Assembly: GCA_963675595.2 (NCBI GenBank)
Contig: CAXXLZ010000002.1
Location: 3,712,001 to 3,776,000, forward strand
Origin: Thermodesulfobacteriota bacterium
Lineage (GTDB): Bacteria > Desulfobacterota > Desulfarculia > JACQYL01
Direction: 5' to 3'
Length of the DNA stretch: 64,000 nt
The notes under the pieces are model-generated. The model ran no database searches. It had not been told where the DNA came from and saw nothing but the letters and a program-made list of their open reading frames with translations. The stretch's first letter is position 1; each line of letters opens with the position of its first letter. The position numbers were made by a program, and so were the translations under genes. Positions 1-12,097 of this stretch are shown piece after piece.

Positions 1-1639
1 CCAAATACATGACATCTTCAATATGTATGCTTTTTTTTATAGGACTAACCTTGCGGATGATATAGCCGGTTGTGCCATAAGACCTCCAATTCTTGATTTT
101 TTTAATTACAATGGAATATTGCTATCTAAGGCATTAGAAAATTATGATAAGCCAAATAGGTTAATTTTGCATCTTGGAGATGCAGCAGATATGTCAACAG
201 CTAACGAGCTATATAATTTTTTCGAGTTAATGAATAAATGCGGTTCTACTTGGTTTATGGCACCAGGCAACCATGATGGATTCTACTATGGAATGAGTAA
301 TCCATTCAAATTCGGAAAAGAATGGGAAAAAGCTTCAACAGATATTTTCAGATCACAAGCAGATGCTGATACTAAGAATAATATCGGAGGTCAGCTAACA
401 AAAGATAGATTTGTCGCCAGCTATTTAGCCGCCTTAATCCTTCAACCGAATGCTCCTTGGGCTGAAACATTGAAGTCTGAGCTCGATGTAAATATTAAAG
501 ACTTAAGATTTAATAAGGAAACCTATTGTGACGTTGTGAGTCAGATATATAATAATGACATAAAATATAATAATCAAGAGATATATGAAAAGGAAATTGA
601 CTTCTCGAAGATCAAAAATTCGAGACTGGATAAGTTAAAGTTTCATATTAATAGAAACGATATCATGCGAGGACAGTCATATATTATGCAATCATTAAAA
701 ATAAACGATAATTTAGATAATATAAGTCAAAATGTATATATTATAGTACTTGATACATCAAGTTATAAGTCATGGCGAACAGTTTTTCACCCTTTTATCC
801 CTTGGTCATGGCTTAGTAATGAATACAATGCAGGAGTGTGGGGCGAGATAGGCAAAGATCAAGCCTGTGTCATGAAAAGTTGGACAGACAGCTACTCTAA
901 AGACTCAAAGTGGATTCTTGCTGGACATCATCCGTATAAAAGCATAAAAATGTCAAAAAACGTGAAAGAAGCATTTAATGTGACCCTTAATAAAGGAAAA
1001 TTACCATATTTCATTTCAGCTCATACCCACTCAGGGAATATTTTTCGGCACGATGATAAGTTTACTGAAATAAATGTCGGTAGTATAGTAGATTATCCTA
1101 TGGAATATAGAGATTTCCAGTTACGAATCGATTCAATATCCAATGTACATATTCAATCTAACCATTACTCACTTATAAATAGTTTTCTTAGTACATACAA
1201 GGATCAACCTAATTACATAATCAACTCGAGTTACTTAGACTACATGAATAGTAATGGCAATTCTCGGGAAATCGAAATTGTTATTAAAACCATGATATTA
1301 GATGTCATTACCGATATTCTAAACCAAATGAAAAACGAAGGGTTATGTGGAAGTTGTGAGAAGGAATTCAAGCTAGTCGAGGATTCGAAGAAAGTTATAA
1401 ATAGGCTAAAAGGCGTACCATCGCATCAAATACGTTTTGATAATGAGCTTGAGGAATTGCAGGCCTATCTGTTAGAGCTAAATGAAATAATACGAGATTC
1501 TAAGTTTCTTGAATCTGAAGTTGGCGAATATTATGCGATGAAGCATTCTTGTTTTGCCAGTAAAGCAGAACATGATGTTAATGGACGAATTAGTAAAAGG
1601 AGAGTCAATAAACTGCGACTTGGTAAGGCAACGAGGTGA
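1..1639 (+). CDS. Calcineurin-like metallophosphoesterase, 5'-truncated by the window edge; AT-rich, probably horizontally acquired
   Basis: Motifs LHLGDAAD, APGNHDG, AGHHPY and SAHTHSG. The frame is open upstream of ATG 23 (QIHDIFN), so the true start is probably outside the window. Much more AT-rich than the rest of the window. Confidence 0.85.
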   Translation, partial: QIHDIFNMYAFFYRTNLADDIAGCAIRPPILDFFNYNGILLSKALENYDKPNRLILHLGDAADMSTANELYNFFELMNKCGSTWFMAPGNHDGFYYGMSNPFKFGKEWEKASTDIFRSQADADTKNNIGGQLTKDRFVASYLAALILQPNAPWAETLKSELDVNIKDLRFNKETYCDVVSQIYNNDIKYNNQEIYEKEIDFSKIKNSRLDKLKFHINRNDIMRGQSYIMQSLKINDNLDNISQNVYIIVLDTSSYKSWRTVFHPFIPWSWLSNEYNAGVWGEIGKDQACVMKSWTDSYSKDSKWILAGHHPYKSIKMSKNVKEAFNVTLNKGKLPYFISAHTHSGNIFRHDDKFTEINVGSIVDYPMEYRDFQLRIDSISNVHIQSNHYSLINSFLSTYKDQPNYIINSSYLDYMNSNGNSREIEIVIKTMILDVITDILNQMKNEGLCGSCEKEFKLVEDSKKVINRLKGVPSHQIRFDNELEELQAYLLELNEIIRDSKFLESEVGEYYAMKHSCFASKAEHDVNGRISKRRVNKLRLGKATR

Positions 1640-1677
1640 AAAGGTTTTCTCTACGCACTGGGTCACATCCTATGAGA

Positions 1678-2084
1678 TAGGGCACGTTGTTGACCGACAT
1701 GACAAACGCTGGTATGCCTTTGGAGTTGTTGATACAGATGAGATGTCCCGACTAAGACGCCCTTCAAACGTATTCCACTTTCATGTCAACACGTCCGTCA
1801 CGGATTGAAGACGACACATGACACTACCGGGCGTATCAGGCGGCCGACGGATCGTATTGGCCGGCTTCCGAGAGGTCCTGATGCCTTCTGAAAGCCGGCA
1901 ATAAGGTAAAGGCAAGTAGCCTTTTTTGTTTTTGGGCGGTAACAGAGCTTGGTCCATCGCACAGGGAACCGGCGCGACGGTTGGAGCTGAGCGCTCCCGC
2001 GGTTGCTTATTCGGTTGAAAGAGGGGAGTCTATTGCCCGTGAAAACGGGTATCGTTTAATGGCGGAGTACTTTACTTTTTTACC
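1678..2084. repeat. ~405-bp non-coding direct repeat, copy 1
   Basis: Aligns without gaps to 6099-6505 at offset 4421, with about 42 mismatches in 404 nt by manual count (~90% identity). Confidence 0.95.
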
Positions 2085-2123
2085 ATCGTCCCTCTATTCC
2101 ATTCGATTTGTTATTCGATATGG

Positions 2124-2188
2124 GTCCAACAACAGGCGGACAACTGGTGATATCCGGCTCGCAACTAGTCGACCGCTGAACCCGAGCG
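2124..2188 (+). other. Degenerate integron attC-like site
   Basis: GTCCAAC (RYYYAAC) ... GCGGAC ... CCGCTGAACCCGAGCG. The terminal GTT is missing and the left arm appears shortened. Confidence 0.4.
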
Positions 2189-2208
2189 AACTTCTTGGAG
2201 GCAAATTC

Positions 2209-5200
2209 ATGCCCGCCTTCATAAAAGACGGTCCCGATATTCCCGAACGACTATTGCAGGCGCAAGAAGATGGGCGCGTGGTCTTCTTCTGCGGTGCGGG
2301 TATTTCCTATGCCGCAGGGTTACCCGGATACTCGGATTTGGTGAAGAGGCTCTATAAAGAAGCGGGAGTCATCCCGAATCCGGTGCAGCAAACTGCGATG
2401 AAGAAGCACCAGTACGACACAGCCTTTGGTCTGTTGGAAGGTTATGCGCTTGGTAAGCGCAAAAGGGCACGATCATTTCTTTCGCAGATATTGAGCCCGA
2501 ATTTGGATGGTTCACATGCGAAAACCATGCACGAAGCATTGCTAACCCTGGCGAGATCGAGGGAAGGGAAGCTGCGTCTCGTAACCACTAACTTCGACCG
2601 GATTTTTGAGGAGATTCTTGGCGACAGCGAAGAGCGTTTCGTAGCTCCTCTGTTACCCGTCCCAAAAAGTCGATGGTGCGGATTGGTATACCTGCACGGG
2701 CTGTTACCTTCAGAGCCGGATCCAGACAAGCTCAACCGGCTCGTGCTGTCCAGCGGCGATTTCGGTCTTGCCTATCTTACGGAGCGTTGGGCCGCTCGTT
2801 TCGTAGGCGAGTTGTTCCGCAATTTTTCGGTTTGTTTCGTCGGGTACAGCATCGGCGACCCCGTGTTGCGTTATATGATGGATGCTCTTGCCGCTGATCG
2901 GCTGATGGGAGAATCTTCGCCGGAGATGTTCGCTTTCGGTGGCTGTTCCAAAGGAAAGGAAACTGAAACGTACAACGAATGGCAGGCGAAAAACGTCACG
3001 CCCATAATGTATTGGAAGCACCGAGAACACGTCCATCTACGTAGGACCTTGCAGGCTTGGGCCGAAGTCTACCGGGACGGCGCAAGCGGCAAACGGATGA
3101 TCCTTGCCCAGCACGCCGCCAGCCCACCGTTGACCTCGTCTCGGGAAGACTATGCCAACGGCAGGGTCTTATGGGCACTTACCGATGGATCGGCGGCCAA
3201 ATTTTTCGCCGACCTCGATCCTGTTCCTCCACTTGAATGGATTGATGTCCTATCCGTGAATCAGTTCGGGATAGAGGATCTGCCCCGGTTTGGAATCAAT
3301 CCTGATGGCAAAGAAGACAAGAATCTGTCTTTCAGCATGATTCGACGGCCCGCGCTACATAGGTTTGCACCGGAAATGTGCTTGGTTGACACGGGTGCTC
3401 GATTCAGTAGATGGGACGACGTGATGAGACATCTGGCCCGCTGGCTCACGCGTCATCTCAACGATCCCCGCCTTGTACTGTGGTTGGCCGAACGGGGTGG
3501 AAGGTTGCACGATGTATTTGTACAACTTGTCAAAGATCGAATCGACGACGTCGATAGATGGCAGCGGACGGATAACAGGGATGAGATGGAATGCATCCTC
3601 AAGGCCGCACCCAACGCCATCCCAATACCTTTCATGCGTACCCTATGGCGGCTTTTTTTAACCGGCCGCGTAAAGACCTCCGGGGACAGAGCAATCAACT
3701 TATACGCATTGGAGGAATGGATCAGAAGGGACGGCTTTACACCAAGTTTTCGTCTGAGGTTTCTGGAGTTGATAAGGCCGCAGGTGAAGTTGCGCGGTGA
3801 GTTTTTCCCGGGAAACAATCGAGCCAGCGTTTCGTCCCAACCGAATCGTACCGAACCATCGGTTGGGTGCGAAGTGGTCCTGTTCGACGATCATGTTCAT
3901 GACACATTGCAGGAATTCAGGAGGGGAGCACACTGGCAAGCGGCTTTGCCGGGCATGTTGAATGACTTTACCGCCCTACTACGCGATGCTCTCGATCTGA
4001 TGGGGGAACTGGGTGGAGCGAACGACCAAGAAGACCGCAGTTATTTCGACCAGCCTTCGATCAGTGAGCATCCGCAGAACAGGGGATTTCACGACTGGAC
4101 CGCGCTGATTGAGCTGACGCGCGATGCCTGGTTGGCCAAGGCGCAAACGGATCCTTCGCGAGCAAGGCATGTGGCCCAAGAATGGATGAGCGTACCCTAT
4201 CCCCTCTTCAAACGTTTGGCCTTCTTTGCCGCCGCTAACAGCGAAGCCGTGCCCCCTGCCACCGCTCTTGGCTGGCTGCTTGACGACGATCACTGGTGGT
4301 TGTGGTCGGATGAGACCGAGCGAGAGGTCATGCGATTGTTGGTGGCTCTGGCGCCGAAACTGGATTCTGAGAGTCGGGGAAAGTTGGAGGAAGCGATCTT
4401 GAAGGGGCCCCCGCGTGAAATGTTTCGGGTTGGACTCGATACTGATAAATTGAACGACATGTTAGACCATGAAGTATGGCTCAGATTGGCCAAAGTGAAG
4501 AATACCGGGGCAACATTGGGTCCACAGGCGGAAACAGAATTGGGTCGATTGGCGGCCCGAAATCCTGAATGGGTACTGGCCAGAGACGAACGTGACGAGT
4601 TTCCTTTTTGGATAGAGAGCGGGTGGGGCGCCAAAGCGGATGGTTCGGCAGACGAGAAGCCAATTGGTCGAGCTTCACTGGTCGAATGGCTCAGAAAGCA
4701 TCCTAAATGTGACCGTTTCAGTGGAGATGACCTTTGGGGCAGAATCTGTCGAGATGATCTTTCAACCGCCGTTGCTGCTTTGGACGACCTGATGTGGGAA
4801 GACCTAGTTTACGGTGATCGATGGGCTGAGCTGTTACAGGTCGCTACAGAAGAAGACTGTCTTGACCTTTCTTGGCCAAGCGTACCAGCAGTTCTCATGA
4901 AAGCGTCAAACGAGCTTCTCATCCAGATCGACCGCTATCTCGGTCGATGGCTGGCATCTCAAGCGGAGGTATTCAAAGAGAAAGAAGAGGTGTTTTTCGG
5001 CCTTATTCGTCGTCTTTTCGAGCTGGATTATGGGGACGACCAACAAGAGCCAGACCCCGTGATAAGAGCGATCAACCATCCTGTCGGACTCGCAACGAAA
5101 GCCCTATTGAATTGGTGGTATCGCCAGGAACTGAGAGAAGCCAAAAGTCTTGAGGATCAGATTCTCAACCTGTTCACAGAACTATGCGACACCAACGTGA

Positions 5201-5982
5201 ACAAGTTCCACTACGGTCGTGTCGTATTGGCGACCCATGTCATTTCGTTGTTTCGCGTTGATGAGGAGTGGACGCGAAATCATTTGCTACCCTTGTTCGA
5301 CTGGCGGCAATCCAATACTGAGGCCTATGGTGCTTGGGGAGGTTTTCTGCAATCTCCGAGGCTATACGGACCGCTTCTATCCGAAATCAAGGGACCCTTC
5401 TTGGAAACGGCAGCACATTACAGCCAGCTTGGGCATTTCGCTGAGCAATTTGCGGGCCTGCTTGCCTTGACCTCCTTGCTTCTTAGCGAAGTATTCACAG
5501 AAAGAGTACTTGCAGAGGCGACAAACAAGTTGCCTGAAAAGGGCCTGGTAAGTGCATTACAAACGGTTACCCGCGCCCTTAAGGGTGCCGGTGACCAGAG
5601 CCAAAATTATTGGAGAAATCGAGTTGCGCCTTATTTGAAGCAGATTTGGCCAAAAAGCAGCGGAAAGCTTACTTTCGCAGTGTCGGAAAACTTCGCAAGG
5701 CTTTTCATTGCTGCTGGAGAAGCCTTCCCGGAAGCGATGCACGAGTTCCACGATTGGCTGAAGCCAGTGCAGTATCCGGGTTCCATCATTCACGGCTTGC
5801 ACGCAAATCGTCTATGTACTCGGTTCCCATCGGATGCCCTTGCTTTATTGGCTGCCGTGATCGGCGAAAACCCGGGCAGGATGCCTGGTAGGCTCCGGAA
5901 TTGTCTTATCGATATCCGTGAGGCGAACCCCGAGTTGGCTGAGGACCCACGCTTTCAAAGGCTCCAACGACTCACCGAATAA
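2209..5982 (+). CDS. dsr1: Defence-associated sirtuin, Dsr1-type (N-terminal SIR2 NADase plus long helical region), 1257 aa
   Basis: GGAGG RBS before ATG 2209. N-terminus GPDIPERLLQAQEDGRVVFFCGAGIS, with SIR2 motifs VTTNFD, YLHG and FVGYSIGDP. The stretch SSGDFGLAYLTERWAARFV and the length match Dsr1. Confidence 0.85.
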   Translation: MPAFIKDGPDIPERLLQAQEDGRVVFFCGAGISYAAGLPGYSDLVKRLYKEAGVIPNPVQQTAMKKHQYDTAFGLLEGYALGKRKRARSFLSQILSPNLDGSHAKTMHEALLTLARSREGKLRLVTTNFDRIFEEILGDSEERFVAPLLPVPKSRWCGLVYLHGLLPSEPDPDKLNRLVLSSGDFGLAYLTERWAARFVGELFRNFSVCFVGYSIGDPVLRYMMDALAADRLMGESSPEMFAFGGCSKGKETETYNEWQAKNVTPIMYWKHREHVHLRRTLQAWAEVYRDGASGKRMILAQHAASPPLTSSREDYANGRVLWALTDGSAAKFFADLDPVPPLEWIDVLSVNQFGIEDLPRFGINPDGKEDKNLSFSMIRRPALHRFAPEMCLVDTGARFSRWDDVMRHLARWLTRHLNDPRLVLWLAERGGRLHDVFVQLVKDRIDDVDRWQRTDNRDEMECILKAAPNAIPIPFMRTLWRLFLTGRVKTSGDRAINLYALEEWIRRDGFTPSFRLRFLELIRPQVKLRGEFFPGNNRASVSSQPNRTEPSVGCEVVLFDDHVHDTLQEFRRGAHWQAALPGMLNDFTALLRDALDLMGELGGANDQEDRSYFDQPSISEHPQNRGFHDWTALIELTRDAWLAKAQTDPSRARHVAQEWMSVPYPLFKRLAFFAAANSEAVPPATALGWLLDDDHWWLWSDETEREVMRLLVALAPKLDSESRGKLEEAILKGPPREMFRVGLDTDKLNDMLDHEVWLRLAKVKNTGATLGPQAETELGRLAARNPEWVLARDERDEFPFWIESGWGAKADGSADEKPIGRASLVEWLRKHPKCDRFSGDDLWGRICRDDLSTAVAALDDLMWEDLVYGDRWAELLQVATEEDCLDLSWPSVPAVLMKASNELLIQIDRYLGRWLASQAEVFKEKEEVFFGLIRRLFELDYGDDQQEPDPVIRAINHPVGLATKALLNWWYRQELREAKSLEDQILNLFTELCDTNVNKFHYGRVVLATHVISLFRVDEEWTRNHLLPLFDWRQSNTEAYGAWGGFLQSPRLYGPLLSEIKGPFLETAAHYSQLGHFAEQFAGLLALTSLLLSEVFTERVLAEATNKLPEKGLVSALQTVTRALKGAGDQSQNYWRNRVAPYLKQIWPKSSGKLTFAVSENFARLFIAAGEAFPEAMHEFHDWLKPVQYPGSIIHGLHANRLCTRFPSDALALLAAVIGENPGRMPGRLRNCLIDIREANPELAEDPRFQRLQRLTE

Positions 5983-6045
5983 ACGCCCCTTCTTTCGTTA
6001 TCCCTCCATAATTGCGCAGGGGGCCGTCCTCCATTTCTCCCCTCG

Positions 6046-6098
6046 ACAAACCACCGGCCTCCGGTCCCTCCACGGCCGGGCGGTTTCCAGTTGTGAAG
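6046..6098 (-). repeat. Duplicated 3' tail of the amidase gene (att-like direct repeat of 7267-7319)
   Basis: 50/53 identical to 7267-7319. Both copies encode [17 protein letters not shown], and all three differences are synonymous. Confidence 0.9.
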
Positions 6099-6505
6099 TA
6101 GGGGACGTTGTTGACTAACATGACAAACGCTGGTAGGCCTTTGGAGTTGTTGACACAGATGAGATGTCCTGACTAACACGCCCTTCAAACGTATTTCACT
6201 TTCTTGTCAACACGTCCGTTCCGGATCGAAGACGACACATGACACTCCTGCGCGTGCTTGGCGGCCGACGGATCGTCTTGGTCGGCTTCCGTGAGCTCCT
6301 AATGTCTTCCGAAAGCCGGCAATAGGGTAAAGGCCAGAAGTCTTTTTTGTTTTTGGGGGGTAAAAGAGCTTGGTCTATCGCACAGGGAGCCGGCGCGACG
6401 GTTGGAGCTGAGCGCTCCCGCGGTTGGTTCTTCCGTTGAAAGAGGGGAATCCATTGCCCGTGAAAACGGGTATCGTTTAATGGCGGAGCAGCTTACTTTT
6501 TTACC
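6099..6505. repeat. ~405-bp non-coding direct repeat, copy 2
   Basis: Ungapped ~90% match to 1678-2084. It begins immediately after the duplicated amidase tail. Confidence 0.95.
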
Positions 6506-6541
6506 GGCCTCCCCATCGGCACCATAAGGATACCAAAATAA

Positions 6542-6667
6542 CTCAAAAAAGGAAGATTGCTGGTCGTAATCCATACTTTTCGAGAAGAAAGTGAAGTGGC
6601 CGTCACTATTAGAAATATTTCAAGCCGAAAAGCAACAATGCAGGAAATCAAAACCTATGGTGAGTGA
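6542..6667 (+). pseudogene. BrnT-family toxin remnant (C-terminal half only)
   Basis: Translates as GRLLVVIHTFREESEVAVTIRNISSRKATMQEIKTYGE*, a typical BrnT C-terminus. There is an in-frame TAA at 6539-6541 and no N-terminus. Confidence 0.75.
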
Positions 6668-6669
6668 AC

Positions 6670-6870
6670 ATGAGAAAAGAGTATGATTTTTCAAAAGGAG
6701 AAAAAGGCAAGTTTTGTCATCCGGATATGAAATTGAACATTCCCATTTATCTTGATGATGAGGTTTCAGCTTTTGTCGACAAAATCGCTTCGAAGAAGGG
6801 AATTGACCGATCCTCGGTAGTGAACGAGCTTTTCAAGGGTGATATAAAGCTCGCTGAGGCCATGGAATAA
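6670..6870 (+). CDS. BrnA/CopG-like antitoxin
   Basis: MRKEYDFSKGEKGKF N-terminus and an RHH-like C-terminus. It lies directly after the BrnT remnant. Confidence 0.8.
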   Translation: MRKEYDFSKGEKGKFCHPDMKLNIPIYLDDEVSAFVDKIASKKGIDRSSVVNELFKGDIKLAEAME

Positions 6871-6879
6871 ATTTCCTTC

Positions 6880-6935
6880 GGAGAACAAAGGCATCCACCG
6901 GATCGCCGTTAAGCGACCGCTTGATGCCGACTGCC
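6880..6935 (+). other. Degenerate integron attC-like site after the antitoxin
   Basis: GAAC-aaa-GGCATC-C-ACCGG-ATCGC...GCGA-CCG...GATGCC-gac inverted-repeat layout, starting 10 bp after the stop codon. The R' GTT is absent. Confidence 0.5.
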
Positions 6936-7104
6936 GATGGCTGTTGTTCAATTCAAGTACTATTATCCTATCCTTGAGCCTCGATCGGCGCGTGACACTC
7001 AAGAATACCTGATGAATACACAATTCGATCAAAGGGCCAAAGCCTCGGCTCCTCAACGGCCGGGAACAGGAACAACATCCAGCGAGGACACCTACTGATC
7101 CCTC

Positions 7105-7186
7105 AGCCTCTCCGCCGAAGGCGGTGAGGCCCGCTTGAAACGTTTCAAGGGGGGCGCACGGGGGGAACTTTTTGAAAAGTTCCCCC
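7105..7186 (-). repeat. REP-like intergenic element (GGGGGAAC-TTTT/AAAA-GTTCCCCC palindrome plus GC hairpin)
   Basis: Reverse-complement match to 12282-12366. The core palindrome also occurs at 8745-8775, with a variant at 10031-10062. Confidence 0.8.
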
Positions 7187-7204
7187 TGTGAACGATTACA
7201 GATC

Positions 7205-7231
7205 GGGAACGGGTTTGAAATCCGCCCCTAC
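7205..7231 (-). repeat. GTAG-type REP sequence
   Basis: The minus strand reads GTAGGGGCGGATTTCAAACCCGTTCCC: a GTAG tetramer followed by an imperfect GC hairpin. Confidence 0.6.
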
Positions 7232-7263
7232 GGGTTCACTGCCGCGCAGGCAGCCCCCTCCTC

Positions 7264-8694
7264 TCAACAAACCACCGGCCTCCGGTCGCGCCACGGCCGG
7301 GCGGTTTCCAGTTGCGAAGCCACACGAAACAAGGTTGTTTCGTCGCCGTATCTCCCCATGAATTGGATCCCGATGGGCAAACCTTCGCCGTTCCAGAACA
7401 GGGGCACGGTCATGGCGGGTTGTCCGGTTACATTGGCCGCCGCGGTAAAGGGCATGAATTCACCGGACCGGAACAGGCCCTTGAGGGGTTCTTCCGGCGG
7501 GGAGTCGAAGGTGCCCAGCGGAACGGGCGGTTCCGCCAGGGTCGGGGTGAGCCACAAATCATAGGTTTCAAAGAATTGCGCGATTTGTCGGGAAATCCCC
7601 TGCAGCACCGTGAGGTTGCGGACGTGGTCCGCGGCCGTCTGCTTGAGGCCGATTTGGTACCAGGCCCAGGTGAGGGGTTCGAATTCCTCCGGAGACAGGC
7701 TCTTGCCCGAAAGCCGCGCCATGTCCATCATGTCCGCCGTCTTGCCTCCGGCCCACAGCTTGAACAGAGCGCTGCCCATGGCTTTGACGTTCATTTCCGG
7801 GGAGGCTTCCTCCACGTGATGGCCCAGTTCGGAACACAAAGCCGCCGCTTTTTGCACCGCGTCCGCGCAATCGGGATGCACAGGATCCCCCTTGGGGGTT
7901 CGATCCGTGAAACCGATGCGCAGGCGTCCGGGTTCCACGCCCAGTTCCCGGCTGAAGGGGCGCTGCGGAGCCGGCGCATAGTAGGGATCGCCCGCGCCGG
8001 GACCGCTGGTGGCGTCCAGCAGGGCGGCGCTGTCGCGGATGGACCGGGTCACCGCGTGTTCACACACCAATCCGTGCATCACGTCCCCGAAGTCGGGACC
8101 CAGCGGATTGCGGCCCCGCGTGGGCTTGAGCCCGAACAGGCCGCAACAGGACGCGGGAATGCGGATGGACCCGCCGCCGTCGTTGGCGTGGGCCATGGGC
8201 ACGATACCTGCGGCCACGGCGGCCGAGGACCCGCCGCTGGACCCTCCGGTGGTGCGTTCCGGATCCCAGGGATTCCGGCAGGGCCCGAAGAGTCGGGATT
8301 CCGCCGTGGGCAGCAGGGCCAGTTCGGACACGTTGGTCTTTCCCAGGAGCACCAAGCCGGCTCGTTTCCAGCGCAGCACGATTTCACTGTCGTGATCCGG
8401 AATGAAATCCTTCATGAACCGGCTGCCGGAAGTCATGGGAAGCCCGGCCCAGAACGCCTGAAAGTCCTTGACCAGAAAAGGCACGCCCCGGAAAGGTTCC
8501 ACGGGAGCCGCGTCTTTGGCCGCTTCCAGAGCCTGGTCGAACGCCTTGGCAATCACTGCGTTCAATTTCGGGTTCAGTGCCTCGATGCGTTCCACGGCCG
8601 CTTGAACCAGTTCCAACGGGGTGATTTCTCTCTTCTTGATGAGTTCCGCCTGCGCAACGGCGTCCAGGAAAGCCAAGTCTTGGTGATCGACCAT
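7264..8694 (-). CDS. Amidase signature family protein
   Basis: [33 protein letters not shown] and GLPIGIQ motifs; 476 aa. Confidence 0.95.
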
Positions 8695-8744
8695 GGAAAA
8701 TTCCTTTTAGAGGCTTGAGGGTTGGTTTTGGATCAGGGATGGGC

Positions 8745-8775
8745 GGGGGGGGAACTTCTGAAAAAGTTCCCCCCC
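8745..8775. repeat. REP-like palindrome
   Basis: GGGGGGGGAACTTCTGAAAAAGTTCCCCCCC, the same family as 7161-7186 and 12282-12312. Confidence 0.8.
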
Positions 8776-9023
8776 GTTGCCCCCCTTCCAAACTTCCAAA
8801 GCGCGCCGGCCCGCCTTCGGCGTGACGGCTGACGGGCGAGTCCGGGAGAATCGCCGCTGCGAATGAGCCGAAAAAACAGTATAGCCGAGGGGCGTAGGTT
8901 GGATCAATGGATGGAGTTCGCGGAATGAGGGGCCGGAGGGGCGCAGGTGTGGGCTCAATTGGACATGGATGGTGGTTGACGGGCTTGAGTTCGTCGTTTG
9001 TGGAAGAGAGCGCGTCGATGTAT

Positions 9024-9135
9024 AATCTGCAGGTAGCTCCCATGGAAGTGCTGCGACGGCGGCGAGGCCAAGGTGGTTCAGGTGCGCCAAGTTCGGGCGG
9101 TGATTCTGAAATATAACATGGGAGGTGATCTGTAG
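9024..9135 (+). pseudogene. hicA: HicA-family toxin remnant
   Basis: NLQ, then a frame disruption, then DGGEAKVVQVRQVRAVILKYNMGGDL*. The stop abuts the hicB ATG, and there is no intact N-terminus. Confidence 0.65.
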
Positions 9136-9348
9136 ATGCTGAGATACGAGATCATCATTTATTGGAGTGAGGAGGACGGCGTGTTTGTGGCGGAAGTTCC
9201 CGAATTGCCGGGTTGTGCCGCACATGGCGCAACGGAGGAAGCCGCCCTCAAAAACGTGAAGGATGCCGTTGGGCTGTGGATCGATACGGCTCGGGAATTT
9301 GGAGATCCGATTCCGGAGCCCAAAGGGCGTCGTCTCATGTACGCGTAG
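9136..9348 (+). CDS. hicB: HicB-family antitoxin
   Basis: YEIIIYWSEEDGVFVAEVPELPGCAAHGATEEAAL...PIPEP, a typical short HicB. Confidence 0.9.
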   Translation: MLRYEIIIYWSEEDGVFVAEVPELPGCAAHGATEEAALKNVKDAVGLWIDTAREFGDPIPEPKGRRLMYA

Positions 9349-9477
9349 AACCGTGACGGTAGCGGTACCGATGCGGCCTTGCACGGCCGGACCTCTTCGG
9401 GTACGGCTCGATCATCGGTGGGAGAGGATGAACAGAGAATGTCATTGTCGGGAATCAACAACCCAAAGGAGAACCGA

Positions 9478-9972
9478 ATGAAAATCAGAATGACGGCATT
9501 GATCGCGGTGGTTTCCGTTTTCGTGCTCATGTTCGCAGGGGTGTCTTTCGCGCAGAAAGGCATGGGACAGGGCATGGGACAGGGCATGGGACAGGGCATG
9601 GGACAGGGAGGAGGCGGTTGGGGCAAAGGCGGCGCCTACAGCAGGATGTATGATCCCAACAGTGTGGTGACCATCACGGGTGAAGTGGTGAGCGTGGATA
9701 AGATCACGCCCATGAAGGGCATGTCCCACGGAGTTCACATTACGGTGAAGACCGACACGGAAACCGTGTCCGTGCATCTGGGGCCGGCCTGGTATCTGGA
9801 AAATCAGGACATCTCCATCCAACCCAAAGACGTGGTCACGGTCACGGGATCGCGCATCGACTTTCATGGTCAACCGGCCATCATTGCGTCTCAAGTGAAA
9901 AAAGGTGAAGACATGATCACGCTTCGGGATGAGCAGGGGGTTCCCGTGTGGAGCGGGTGGAAACAGCGGTAA
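9478..9972 (+). CDS. Exported OB-fold-like protein (MamS/MamX-like domain) with GMGQ repeats
   Basis: AAGGAG RBS, signal peptide ending SFA, motifs VHLGPAWYL and LRDEQGVPVW. Confidence 0.7.
   Translation: MKIRMTALIAVVSVFVLMFAGVSFAQKGMGQGMGQGMGQGMGQGGGGWGKGGAYSRMYDPNSVVTITGEVVSVDKITPMKGMSHGVHITVKTDTETVSVHLGPAWYLENQDISIQPKDVVTVTGSRIDFHGQPAIIASQVKKGEDMITLRDEQGVPVWSGWKQR
9559..9606 (+). repeat. 12-bp tandem repeat GGCATGGGACAG x4 (encodes GMGQ)
   Basis: Four perfect in-frame copies are visible. Confidence 0.95.
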
Positions 9973-10030
9973 TCAGATTCCGCCGCATGTTGAGGTGAGA
10001 AAGCCAAGCCGTATTCATTTCGTGGTGTGT

Positions 10031-10062
10031 CCGGGACAACCTTTTGAAAAGGGTCGTCCCGG
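10031..10062. repeat. REP-like palindrome variant
   Basis: CCGGGACAACCTTTTGAAAAGGGTCGTCCCGG followed by CCCCTTTCCAAGACTTTC, a tail similar to the one after the 8745 copy. Confidence 0.55.
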
Positions 10063-10410
10063 CCCCTTTCCAAGACTTTCCGAGAGGGTTGCCCGCTCGC
10101 GCGTCGCAACCGGGGTCGGGGAGGCTCTCCGAACAGGTTACCGGATCCAACCCACCGGAATGCTCGACGAGGGCGTGGCGGCTTGAATGCTTTCAATGGA
10201 TGGAGAACCTCATCGGTTCGGCTCCGTGCCCGGCGAGGCGTTGATTTCGTGATCAATGCAGGGTAGGAGTAAGAGAGCCGGCACGGGTCCTGAAACGGCC
10301 CCGAAGGATAGGATTGTCGGCGGGCGGGCAAACGCTCCCATCCAGGCCCATCCCTTGACGCACGTTCGGTCTTTTTCATTGAACCCTCATCGGTATCAGG
10401 AGGTTGCGGG

Positions 10411-11676
10411 ATGTCGAAGAAGAGAAAACTCGGAAGAGGCGTTGCGATCGTCGGCGCCGGTATGTCGAAGTTCGGGATGTTCAAGGACAGAGACTCCAAG
10501 GACGTATTCGTGGAGGCATATAAGGAAATGATGGCCTCCATAGACAAAGGCTTTGATCCCAACGATATCGACGCCTTGTACCTGGGGAACTTCACCAACG
10601 ATTTCTTTATGCACCAGGCCCACTGGGGACCCATCGTCACCGATTTGATCGGCATTACCCCCAAACCGGCGACGAGAACGGAAGGCGCGTGCGCATCGAG
10701 CGCTCTGGCGTTTCGTGAAGGCGTGTTCGCCATTGCGTCGGGCTTCTACGATCTGGTGCTGGTGGGCGGACTCGAAGAAATGTCCAAGCGCACCACCGAG
10801 GAAGTGGCCGAAGGGTTGGCCCTGGCGTCCGTACCTTACGAAATGAAAGTCGGTTTCACCTTTCCCGGCGTGTTCGGAACGCTGGCCACCGCGTATTTCG
10901 ACAAATACGGCGCGTCCCGGGAAGACCTCATGAACGTCACCATCAAGAGCCACAACAACGCGCCTCTGAATCCCAAGGCGCAGTTTCCCGTGACCATCCG
11001 TGACTTGATGGAATCCAGAAAAGCCAAGATGGAGCAGAAAGGCATGCCGGCTCCGGAGTGGCAGGATGAAAAGGATTTCCTCCGGGATCCGGCCATGAAT
11101 CCCGCGGTGGCGTGGCCCATGCACCTGTTCGACTGCTGCCCCATCAGCGACGGCGCGGCCTGCATGCTGCTGGCCTCCGAAGATATCGCCAAGAACTTCA
11201 CGGATACGCCCATTTCCATCATCGGGATCGGGCAGGGCAGTGGTCGCGGGCTCCACGCCGCGGCGGAACTCACCTCCTTTGAAGCCACCAAGAACGCGGC
11301 GGAAGAAGCCTACGGCATGTCCGGACTGACGCCGGAGGACATTCAGTTCGCCGAAGTGCACGACTGCTTTTCCATGGCGGAACTCATCCACATCGAGGAC
11401 CTGGGCTTCTTCAAGGCGGGGGAAGGATACAAGGCCGTGGGCGAAGGGTTGACGCGGCTGGACGGCCCCAAGCCCATCAACACCTCCGGCGGTCTCAAGT
11501 GCAAGGGACACCCGGTGGGCGCCACGGGCATCGCCCAGTTGTATGAAATCTGGACGCAGCTTCGAGGACAGGCCGGCAAACGCCAGGTGCCCATCAAGGA
11601 CCTGCGCATCGGCGGAGCCCACAACCTCGGCGGTACGGGCGGAACCTGCACCTTTACCATCCTGGAGAGGAGATAA
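10411..11676 (+). CDS. Thiolase, SCP-x/archaeal type (acetyl-CoA acyltransferase)
   Basis: EGACASS, EVHDCF, GHPVGATG and HNLGG motifs; AGGAGG RBS. Confidence 0.92.
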   Translation: MSKKRKLGRGVAIVGAGMSKFGMFKDRDSKDVFVEAYKEMMASIDKGFDPNDIDALYLGNFTNDFFMHQAHWGPIVTDLIGITPKPATRTEGACASSALAFREGVFAIASGFYDLVLVGGLEEMSKRTTEEVAEGLALASVPYEMKVGFTFPGVFGTLATAYFDKYGASREDLMNVTIKSHNNAPLNPKAQFPVTIRDLMESRKAKMEQKGMPAPEWQDEKDFLRDPAMNPAVAWPMHLFDCCPISDGAACMLLASEDIAKNFTDTPISIIGIGQGSGRGLHAAAELTSFEATKNAAEEAYGMSGLTPEDIQFAEVHDCFSMAELIHIEDLGFFKAGEGYKAVGEGLTRLDGPKPINTSGGLKCKGHPVGATGIAQLYEIWTQLRGQAGKRQVPIKDLRIGGAHNLGGTGGTCTFTILERR

Positions 11677-11680
11677 ACCC

Positions 11681-12097
11681 ATGATCGACAAACCGTTGAG
11701 CGATGTTTCATATGAGCAGTTCCTGAGGGAAGACAAGCTCATGGGGTCTCGCTGCAAGAAATGCGGAGACGTATTCACCCCTCCCAGGCCCATTTGCCCC
11801 AAATGCACCGATTCCGAGCTCGAATGGGTTCAGATGAAGGGAACCGGCAAGCTCGCGGCCTTTACCTGCATTTCCATCGGCCCCGGGTTCATGAACGCGG
11901 AAGGATTCAGCCGCAAGAATCCCTATTGCGTCGGCGTGGTGGAACTGGATGAAGGCACCAGAGTGGACGCCCGCATCGAAGGCGTGGACACCCTGAATCC
12001 GGAGACCATCAAAGTGGGTACGCCCATGACGGTGAAATTCCTCCATCGGGGCGAAGGGATCGACCAGAAGGTATTTCTCGCTTTTGAACCGGTCTGA
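11681..12097 (+). CDS. DUF35 Zn-ribbon/OB-fold thiolase partner
   Basis: CKKCG...PPRPICPKC zinc ribbon plus OB region; directly follows the thiolase. Confidence 0.9.
   Translation: MIDKPLSDVSYEQFLREDKLMGSRCKKCGDVFTPPRPICPKCTDSELEWVQMKGTGKLAAFTCISIGPGFMNAEGFSRKNPYCVGVVELDEGTRVDARIEGVDTLNPETIKVGTPMTVKFLHRGEGIDQKVFLAFEPV

Follow-up and report, generated by a model that had tools for sequence, protein, structure and literature searches.

How does a bacterial defence island come by its genes when nothing in it looks able to move DNA? In many such islands no recombinase can be seen, and how their contents turn over is an open question. The locus described here lies in, and just to the left of, a stretch of 64,000 nucleotides (the window; G000:C2:3712001-3776000, where C2 is contig CAXXLZ010000002.1) from the genome of a Thermodesulfobacteriota bacterium (6.79 Mb, G+C 0.561). 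In this island, a repeat termed R alternates with unrelated cargo, including the defence gene dsr1, next to an amidase gene whose 3′ end, or tail, is present twice. A first-pass annotation of the window had proposed a family of cassettes that stack at the amidase gene in an integron-like manner. In contrast, the analysis reported here indicates that R is very probably a fossil copy of a TIRtron, non-autonomous, stop-ridden and internally deleted. The island, which is free of recombinases, was probably pieced together at such relics and not by an integron-like machine. More specifically, and with a probability of about 0.5, it is an accretion zone in which fossil TIRtron copies are the joints and to which one of the units, unit B, came as a single block.

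Duplicated ends of the units

Repeat finding, alignment and BLAST agree with the first-pass annotation that there are two units with common ends and unrelated cargo, namely dsr1 in unit A and a 5′-cut brnT followed by an antitoxin-like open reading frame (ORF) in unit B. Both ends are longer than had been described. The repeat, first put at 405 bp, measures 417-424 nt by alignment and BLAST. Its ungapped core, obtained by repeat finding, spans 300 nt (1673-1972 vs 6094-6393, 88% identity), gapped alignment and genome BLAST pair 1678-2094 with 6099-6513 (89% over 415 nt), and the copy in unit B extends to 6522 when set against a third copy. In turn, the tail, first put at 53 bp, has a core of 62 nt (6037-6098 vs 7258-7319, 92%), and the likeness reaches about 85 nt if a gap of 9 nt is allowed (6013-6098 vs 7243-7319). 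It comprises the last 17 codons, the stop codon and the first 3′ flank bases of the amidase gene at 7264-8694 on the minus strand. The features at the ends of the two units are as follows, TIR standing for terminal inverted repeat and HTH for helix-turn-helix.

1678-2094, plus strand: R_A, very probably a relic TIRtron copy; left TIR at 1681-1706 with 4 mismatches to the intact element, right end degenerate
About 1882-2067, plus strand: C-terminal HTH pseudogene of R_A
6013-6098, minus strand: tail A, displaced amidase 3′ end; core 6037-6098, its 17 codons encoding the residues of tail B
6099-6522, plus strand: R_B, very probably a relic TIRtron copy; left TIR at 6102-6127 with 1 mismatch
6303-6491, plus strand: HTH pseudogene of R_B
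7243-7319, minus strand: tail B, amidase 3′ end in use; core 7258-7319

BLAST against the whole genome finds two copies of the tail, both at the amidase island. Thus, the caveat that no amidase tail is seen left of 1678 holds, and the supposed tie between repeat and amidase is lost, since the tail is confined to this locus and only unit B has tails at both sides. The two tails differ at 5 of 62 nt; three of these differences fall within the 17 codons, and all three are synonymous. In addition, the stop codon TGA has become CGA in tail A, and both tails terminate in GAAG. The joint between tail A and R_B reads GTTGTGAAG and then TAGGGG, so that the border of the tail duplication is the end of R, to the base. 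At this joint, the amidase sequence GTTGCGAAG and the outer end of R, GTGTGAAG, match at 7 of 8 nt. The left end of R is also the exact start of all three units of the island, the third of which is described below. By contrast, the cargo stretches of units A and B are alike only over some 25 nt beside the tails.

This layout is not an artefact of assembly, since contigs from X1 and X2, two public runs that may represent the source sample, span the joint of phosphoesterase and R_A, as well as the succession R_A, Dsr1, tail A and R_B, with no differences. The stretch is present in three public runs of one study, where it is stored in short contigs, broken at each repeat. The joints listed for these runs all fall within abundant miniature repeats, and none of them joins tail to R or R to R; run X3 holds scattered identical pieces only, which are uninformative on the presence or absence of units. 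A scan of 1500-7400 for promoters and terminators gave fewer sites than shuffled sequences, and no promoter in R. Finally, a permissive Rfam search of window positions 1-10000 and of bases 1-12000 of the L044 island returned only two chance microRNA matches (E 0.6-0.8), by which R and the S repeat (see below) are ruled out as known RNAs.

Identity of the repeat

TIRtrons are a little-studied family. According to the text of Di Nocera et al. (2013, PMC3733652) and Quentin et al. (2018, PMC6006769), TIRtrons consist of a TIRYT gene, which encodes a Y1/HUH tyrosine transposase with a C-terminal HTH, between terminal inverted repeats. When R is read in one frame, a C-terminal HTH peptide appears after a series of stops. 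These stops are common to all copies and, consequently, R spread after the death of the gene. The peptide encoded at 6303-6491 leads to open frames of 335-361 amino acids (aa) in two related genomes, with weaker matches in two more, among 94 other genomes of the class. The related proteins start with MPRLARLDAPG and, used as tblastn queries, match R_A, R_B and R_C (the third copy) at E 1e-9 to 1e-12. A longer remnant of the gene, covering residues 226-334 by tblastn, persists in copy D (C2:4306350-4307200). Relative to this copy, A, B and C have a common deletion of about 310 nt, which places them in one sub-lineage.

On its left side, R is composed of the left inverted repeat of the element and about 40 nt of its 5′ leader, followed by about 160 nt of unknown origin. 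On the right, there is the stop-ridden remnant of the last ~60 codons and then a degenerate right end, which retains only CGTCCCCAT of the end of the element. Positions 1-66 of R are 78% identical to the 5′ flank of the intact element, and the left inverted repeat stands at the start of all 9 R-type copies with 0-4 mismatches in 26 nt. Folding of both DNA strands revealed no hairpin in R or in the intact left ends beyond that of shuffled sequences (z -1.3 to 0.3). A dedicated leader or att arm is ruled out as the nature of R, and the repeat is a dead transposon copy instead.

The element from which R would derive is still represented in the genome by one intact TIRtron (C2:143169-144257, 1,089 bp). 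Its gene (C2:143192-144175) encodes a protein 43-47% identical to the query proteins of 335-361 aa and is flanked by perfect 26/26 nt inverted repeats, GGGACGTTGTTGACTAACGTGACAAA, which are 1,037 nt apart. Thus, an HUH recombinase linked to the repeat, one of the kinds that the first-pass annotation had advised looking for, was found: the left ends of all copies match the inverted repeat of this one intact TIRYT gene. The protein contains a Y1_Tnp domain (PF01797, 44.6 bits, cut-off 23), and H60-I-H62 and Y119, which correspond to the established HUH and Tyr motifs, are invariant in an alignment of four proteins. Residues 281-320 match HTH_23, HTH_3 and HTH_Tnp_ISL3 at E 1e-4 to 4e-4, all below the cut-offs; a C-terminal HTH extension is the mark of TIRYT subclass 2.1 in the text of Quentin et al. 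(2018, PMC6006769). The inverted repeat reads GGGGACGT, which agrees with GGGGWSAS at 6 of 8 positions, a motif that the texts of PMC3733652 and PMC6006769 give for the majority of TIRYT repeats, not for all. Apart from this match of 6/8, the intact element is a TIRtron by definition. It is not a RAYT, an identity ruled out by a score of 65.3 bits against the RAYT equivalog NF047646, with a cut-off of 80, and by a flanking repeat with 25 copies and no hairpin. A search of solved structures by sequence with the intact TIRYT gave no match.

Extent and composition of the island

A third full copy, R_C, lies 3.66 kb left of the window (genome 3708344-3708765, window -3656 to -3235). The low-GC phosphoesterase left of R_A is the cargo of the unit that opens with R_C, as the first-pass annotation had anticipated for a further unit on that side. 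From left to right, the island begins with a gene for an AMP-binding enzyme between miniature repeats, followed by a first S repeat (S1), an ORF of 163 aa and R_C. Next come a second S repeat (S2), split by an insertion sequence (IS), the phosphoesterase gene (618 aa), R_A, dsr1 and tail A. On the right, R_B is followed by the truncated brnT and the antitoxin-like ORF, a miniature repeat, and tail B with the rest of the amidase gene.

The three R copies are in direct orientation, and at these copies the 15 kb downstream of the amidase gene falls into blocks that differ in composition. The G+C of the four cargo blocks is 0.485, 0.348, 0.531 and 0.438, and that of the three R copies is 0.505-0.535, against 0.561 for the genome. 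As the R copies are alike in G+C whatever their cargo, they have not travelled for long together with low-GC cargo. R_B and R_C are 89.5% identical, and either is 86% identical to R_A, although R_A sits between them, which argues against a simple duplication of neighbours.

The first-pass annotation had seen no recombinase in the units, and this agrees with the wider search. Of 13 genome matches to the tyrosine integrase family PF00589, none lies within about 380 kb of the island (3704000-3719300), the nearest being at C2:3101760 and C2:4230122. Since no PF00589 gene is nearby, the tail is ruled out as the att site of a tyrosine integrase. The only recombinase domain in the scanned ORFs of 3704000-3719300 is the transposase of the unrelated IS; serine recombinases (PF00239) were not searched. 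This IS (C2:3709337-3711215, 1879 bp) encodes a transposase of 569 aa with DUF772 and DDE_Tnp_1_6 domains, has 20 other copies in the genome at 99.8% identity or more, and is the element that splits S2. Another copy of it cuts a methyltransferase gene between two R copies elsewhere (C2:592758-594636).

The S repeat forms a family of four copies of about 700 bp, with 73-82% identity, and looks non-coding. The copies are at C2:3706808-3707557, C2:3708826-3709286 with 3711216-3711339, C1:509352-510023 and C1:120179-120772. Three of them precede different genes, namely the 163 aa ORF, the phosphoesterase gene and a gene for a DUF5677 protein. The locus at C1:506-514 kb has three modules in common with the amidase island, a TIR relic, an S repeat and a piece of 80 nt. 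The island also holds several families of miniature repeats, each with 50 to more than 140 overlapping matches in the genome.

Distribution of R and its inverted repeat

The inverted repeat has 25 copies in the genome when up to 6 mismatches are allowed. These include the two ends of the intact element, the 9 R-type copies plus one stub of 46 nt, 6 copies that are fusions with relics of a second TIRtron lineage, and several right-end-type or other joints. In the six fusions, the 26 nt inverted repeat stands just upstream of the left end of the second lineage, with its 5′ leader and first 50-80 codons (C1:506649; C2:2966286, 2972105 and 3822005; C3:1840 and 165435). The second lineage has its own inverted repeat of 52 nt, seen in a related genome (L027).

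R-type copies are present at five loci, the amidase island and four others, and direct tandems occur at three of the latter (4306407-4307918, 592465-595631 and 330882-333163). The genes that adjoin these other copies are a glyoxalase gene, a methyltransferase gene and ORFs with no Pfam matches. For instance, the glyoxalase/bleomycin-resistance-type gene at C2:4305851-4306426 (L013:8845-9426) lies between direct repeats of 40 nt, 88% identical, which equal the right end of the adjacent upstream R copy; a putative rubredoxin-like ORF follows the gene. In a simple count with no statistics, the first gene behind R is co-oriented with it in 6 of 8 cases. Thus, the expectation that the same ends would be found with other cargo is borne out as far as R-type copies lie beside other genes at four loci, mostly in direct tandem, and fails with respect to defence. 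When 9 other proteins encoded beside TIR copies were examined with PADLOC, no defence family was recovered save weak mad8/LeoBC matches on one protein of 754 aa.

The R copies differ by 10-26% in pairwise comparisons, with none closer than about 90%. There is no sign of recent movement, and the relics look inactive now. Over 36 pairs, the inverted repeat has a pairwise identity of 90.7% vs 77.9% for the next 166 nt.

Outside this genome, neither R DNA nor an R-type interior was found in any of 40 relatives. A search of 185,579 species genomes with a strict end motif gave one match, to the end motif only and with no R-type interior. At this match, about 38 nt of the left end interrupt the 3′ part of a putative HU/IHF-like gene in an unrelated delta-proteobacterial metagenome-assembled genome (L029:2100-2300). 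The end motif is also present in 85 metagenome contigs, as the boundary of intact TIRtrons, in hairpin doublets, in tandem ends of direct orientation and in one small deletion derivative; an R-type interior or the amidase tail was found in none of the 85. Contigs L109, L111 and L114 carry this end in direct tandem arrays. In L111 (212-2781), two direct right-end-type copies of the inverted repeat flank an ATPase_2/DUF234 gene, and Fic and DUF4143 ATPase genes adjoin. Hence, L111 is an instance, beyond this genome, of genes enclosed by ends of the family.

Assembly of the island

In the accretion reading given above, a block would be one R with the DNA behind it, and it would enter next to an R already in place or at a look-alike of the outer end of R. 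The joining would be performed by recombination of the host, either homologous or driven by microhomology, in the manner of IS26-type translocatable units, and the blocks would be transferred from related genomes with relics of the same kind. As for unit B (R_B, the truncated brnT, the antitoxin-like ORF and tail B), it may have entered whole, from a diverged allele of the amidase gene. It would have been joined where the outer end of R, GTGTGAAG, meets GTTGCGAAG of the amidase, and its entry would have displaced the old tail, tail A, and left the amidase frame whole. Differences within the tail codons that are all synonymous are what would be expected if both tails had served working amidases in separate lineages.

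Several observations weigh against such accretion. No block was found at two places, nor was an empty site, so that we infer the movement of blocks. No tail lies left of unit A, and unit C, which opens with R_C, has none at all. The test on synonymous changes comprises 3 differences, with a rough p of about 0.06 under divergence in place. The cut in brnT means that at least one joint beside R was made by deletion, which also fits R as a bystander. As R-type interiors were not found outside this genome (40 relatives, 185,579 species genomes and 85 metagenome contigs), R-bearing donors have to be postulated. Finally, conservation is higher in the inverted repeat than in the interior (90.7% vs 77.9%), which hints at continuing use by a transposase, something that the route through host recombination does not need. 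The whole case comes from one genome, in which no movement was observed.

The rival that survives best, although it is doubtful, makes use of the intact TIRYT and gives a specific form to the mobilisation in trans that the first-pass annotation had proposed. Acting in trans, the enzyme would nick the left ends of successive R copies, or an R end and a look-alike site, and thereby move R with its cargo and all else up to the next cut. A single-stranded circle would insert beside a GAAG-type target, and a unit cut within the amidase gene would carry a spare tail. An intact enzyme with invariant HUH and Tyr motifs exists, and the left end of R deviates from the inverted repeat that flanks its gene by 0-4 mismatches in 26 nt. 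This left end is kept at 90.7%, against 77.9% for the interior and a degenerate right end, the three units open exactly at it, and GAAG terminates both tails. In addition, direct tandem ends recur in L109, L111 and L114, with an ATPase gene between two copies in L111. Nevertheless, we know of no demonstration that a TIRYT moves DNA, and the activity of the TIRtron family has never been shown. The texts of PMC3733652 and PMC6006769 call the mechanism unknown. Moreover, no R pair is closer than about 90%, while the unrelated IS has its 20 other copies at 99.8% or more. The end of R_A carries 4 mismatches, unit B has truncated cargo, there is no tail left of unit A, and the end has no hairpin fold (z -1.3 to 0.3). 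The uniform G+C of R, whatever its cargo, also speaks against long travel with low-GC cargo. On this rival, TIRYT transposases would be more than domesticated or idle proteins, and a single intact TIRYT would build integrase-free defence islands and could patch its target gene with a spare tail, as a Y1/HUH counterpart of IS26/ISCR capture, which seems unlikely.

An improbable alternative is that no unit moved at all. In this case, a stretch of R, cargo and tail would have been duplicated locally in tandem, at the microhomology between the R end and the amidase, with later replacement of the cargo in one copy. The order R, x, tail, R, y, tail is the product expected of one tandem duplication, the joint lies within the 7/8 nt match, and the differences between R_A and R_B (13%) and between the tails (8%, 5/62) are compatible with one age. 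By contrast, the cargo stretches are unlike beyond about 25 nt beside the tails, R_B is nearer to distant R_C than to its neighbour R_A, 3 of 3 coding differences between the tails are synonymous, and the blocks contrast strongly in G+C.

It is just as improbable that the R copies are inert fossils of miniature elements in a gene-poor, repeat-rich stretch where cargo arrived by unrelated illegitimate events: the copies are old, dispersed repeats abound in the genome (several families with 50 to more than 140 matches, some within the island) and the truncation of brnT shows that illegitimate joints occur here, but three R copies lie exactly at the borders of blocks of unlike composition, the border of the tail duplication is the end of R to the base, and direct tandems are again the habit at three of the four remaining loci with R. 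Finally, the island is ruled out as an integron or a classical integrase island, as no tyrosine recombinase is near and only one unit lies between tails.

Likeness to known systems

By analogy, the island would work most like an IS26 or ISCR array in which a dead Y1/HUH relic is the repeated element. In IS26-type translocatable units and pseudo-compound arrays, as in the island, direct copies of one element alternate with unrelated cargo, and the addition of one element with adjacent DNA beside a resident copy would yield this layout. However, the element here is a dead Y1/HUH relic and not a live DDE insertion sequence, so that a conservative reaction cannot be assumed, and the cargo is a defence gene and toxin-antitoxin remnants rather than resistance genes. 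One-ended rolling-circle capture by ISCR/IS91 elements is similar in its HUH enzyme, in having one well-kept end with the other poor or missing, and in the downstream genes that are picked up. In contrast to these elements, the R copies encode nothing. In addition, the IS91/ISCR enzymes belong to another HUH class.

Integrative islands at the 3′ end of a gene also have direct repeats of that end, as around unit B, with the copy on the side of the element in use; here, the displaced tail copy has no stop codon. Unlike in such islands, there is no PF00589 integrase near, and only 1 of 3 units is flanked on both sides. With integrons, the island has in common a series of co-oriented, promoterless-looking cargo units with no recombinase inside. 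The integron-like accretion that had been proposed is not borne out, since there is no intI-type PF00589 gene within about 380 kb and the repeat is, by inspection, a dead gene copy of 420 bp and not an attC hairpin of 60-140 bp; the units also reach 5 kb.

The TIRtrons described in the literature resemble the element found here in their intact Y1_Tnp gene, C-terminal HTH and long inverted repeats beginning with GGGGAC (Di Nocera et al. 2013, PMC3733652; Quentin et al. 2018, PMC6006769; text of both). The inverted-repeat family of 25 copies, with some dimers and clusters, is likewise moderately abundant, a pattern described in the same texts. Nevertheless, the copies here are relics of 420 bp, with the left end kept, a dead C-terminal remnant and a decayed right end, and they stand in direct arrays with accessory genes between them. 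Neither such relics nor a link to cargo or defence is described in the text of PMC3733652 and PMC6006769, figures and supplements aside. Likewise, REPIN-RAYT systems pair a single-copy Y1 transposase gene with non-autonomous derivatives that carry its flanking repeat, and the end is conserved above background. However, the protein here is below the NF047646 cut-off, and the repeat is not a short palindrome and has no fold. Its copies are 25 and not hundreds, and they are long, unpaired and beside variable genes.

Judged by the refutation that the first-pass annotation had itself proposed, in which the repeat would occur genome-wide with no link to the tail or to defence cargo, its reading of defence cassettes stacking at the amidase gene is weakened. 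The looser pattern of a repeat with variable cargo stands.

Cargo genes and the amidase

The genes between the repeats, together with the amidase gene and a miniature repeat beside it, are listed below.

1-1639, plus strand: calcineurin-like phosphoesterase, 618 aa, 3′ part in the window; PF00149, 37.6-39.4 bits
2209-5982, plus strand: dsr1, intact SIR2-family defence gene, 1257 aa; NF041818 1645.9 bits, PADLOC Dsr1 1408.8 bits
6542-6667, plus strand: brnT remnant, 5′-truncated, last 41 codons and stop; PF04365 BrnT_toxin positions 50-77 of 77, E 1.5e-5, 25.7 bits
6664-6870, plus strand: small antitoxin-like ORF, 68 aa; weak profile matches only, family label not settled
7099-7195, no strand assigned: copy of a palindromic miniature repeat; up to 91 overlapping genome matches
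7264-8694, minus strand: amidase, 476 aa; PF01425, 330.2 bits

The phosphoesterase gene starts at C2:3711783, 217 nt left of the window, and the phosphoesterase domain is N-terminal. With a G+C of 0.348 vs 0.561 for the genome, the gene is clearly foreign. Its product has no match in PADLOC or NCBIfam.

Dsr1 exceeds the curated equivalog cut-off of NF041818, which is 1400. The start of dsr1 is most likely the ATG at 2209. A frame of 1333 aa, from a TTG at 1981, does enter the gene from R_A; it is open only through the loss of a stop codon in R_A, and R is thus ruled out as a 5′ extension of the dsr1 ORF. A search of 400 other genomes from the phylum gave homologues of Dsr1 in 3 (42-62% identity, mostly at contig ends), and the inverted repeat is absent from all of these loci.

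The cargo of unit B is less complete. The brnT gene is cut at the right side of R_B and, consequently, unit B is not a clean cassette. The ORF that follows more likely starts at the ATG at 6670, and its weak scores are 22.1 bits to the MazE-type family NF050104 (cut-off 65) and E 0.032 to DUF6364; no BrnA Pfam match was seen at E up to 10. Hence, of the BrnT/BrnA remnant first reported, the 3′ part of brnT is upheld by PF04365 and BrnA is not. With an incomplete toxin and no BrnA match, the pair is not a complete BrnT/BrnA system.

The C-terminal residues of the amidase, QLE.ARPW..RRP, are common to the amidases of three relatives, and homologues with 56-66% identity were found in 3 of 20 relatives. 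The surroundings of these homologues do not match the island, in gene order or otherwise, except for a repeat of 145 bp (more than 140 overlapping matches in this genome), and no empty amidase site could be defined. The amidase gene lies between inverted copies of a miniature repeat (7135-7186 and 8748-8799; 52 nt, 79% complementary). Further to the right, window positions 9559-9606 hold a perfect tandem of four 12 nt units, GGCATGGGACAG, inside ORFs with no Pfam match.

Significance

The joints of this recombinase-free defence island coincide with fossil TIRtron copies. If the relics are only bystanders, the locus is a warning that a long conserved leader before cargo can be a dead transposase gene. 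By contrast, if they serve as anchors for recombination or as substrates of the intact enzyme, this would be the first biological role for TIRYT proteins and would add a route for the shuffling of genes such as dsr1.

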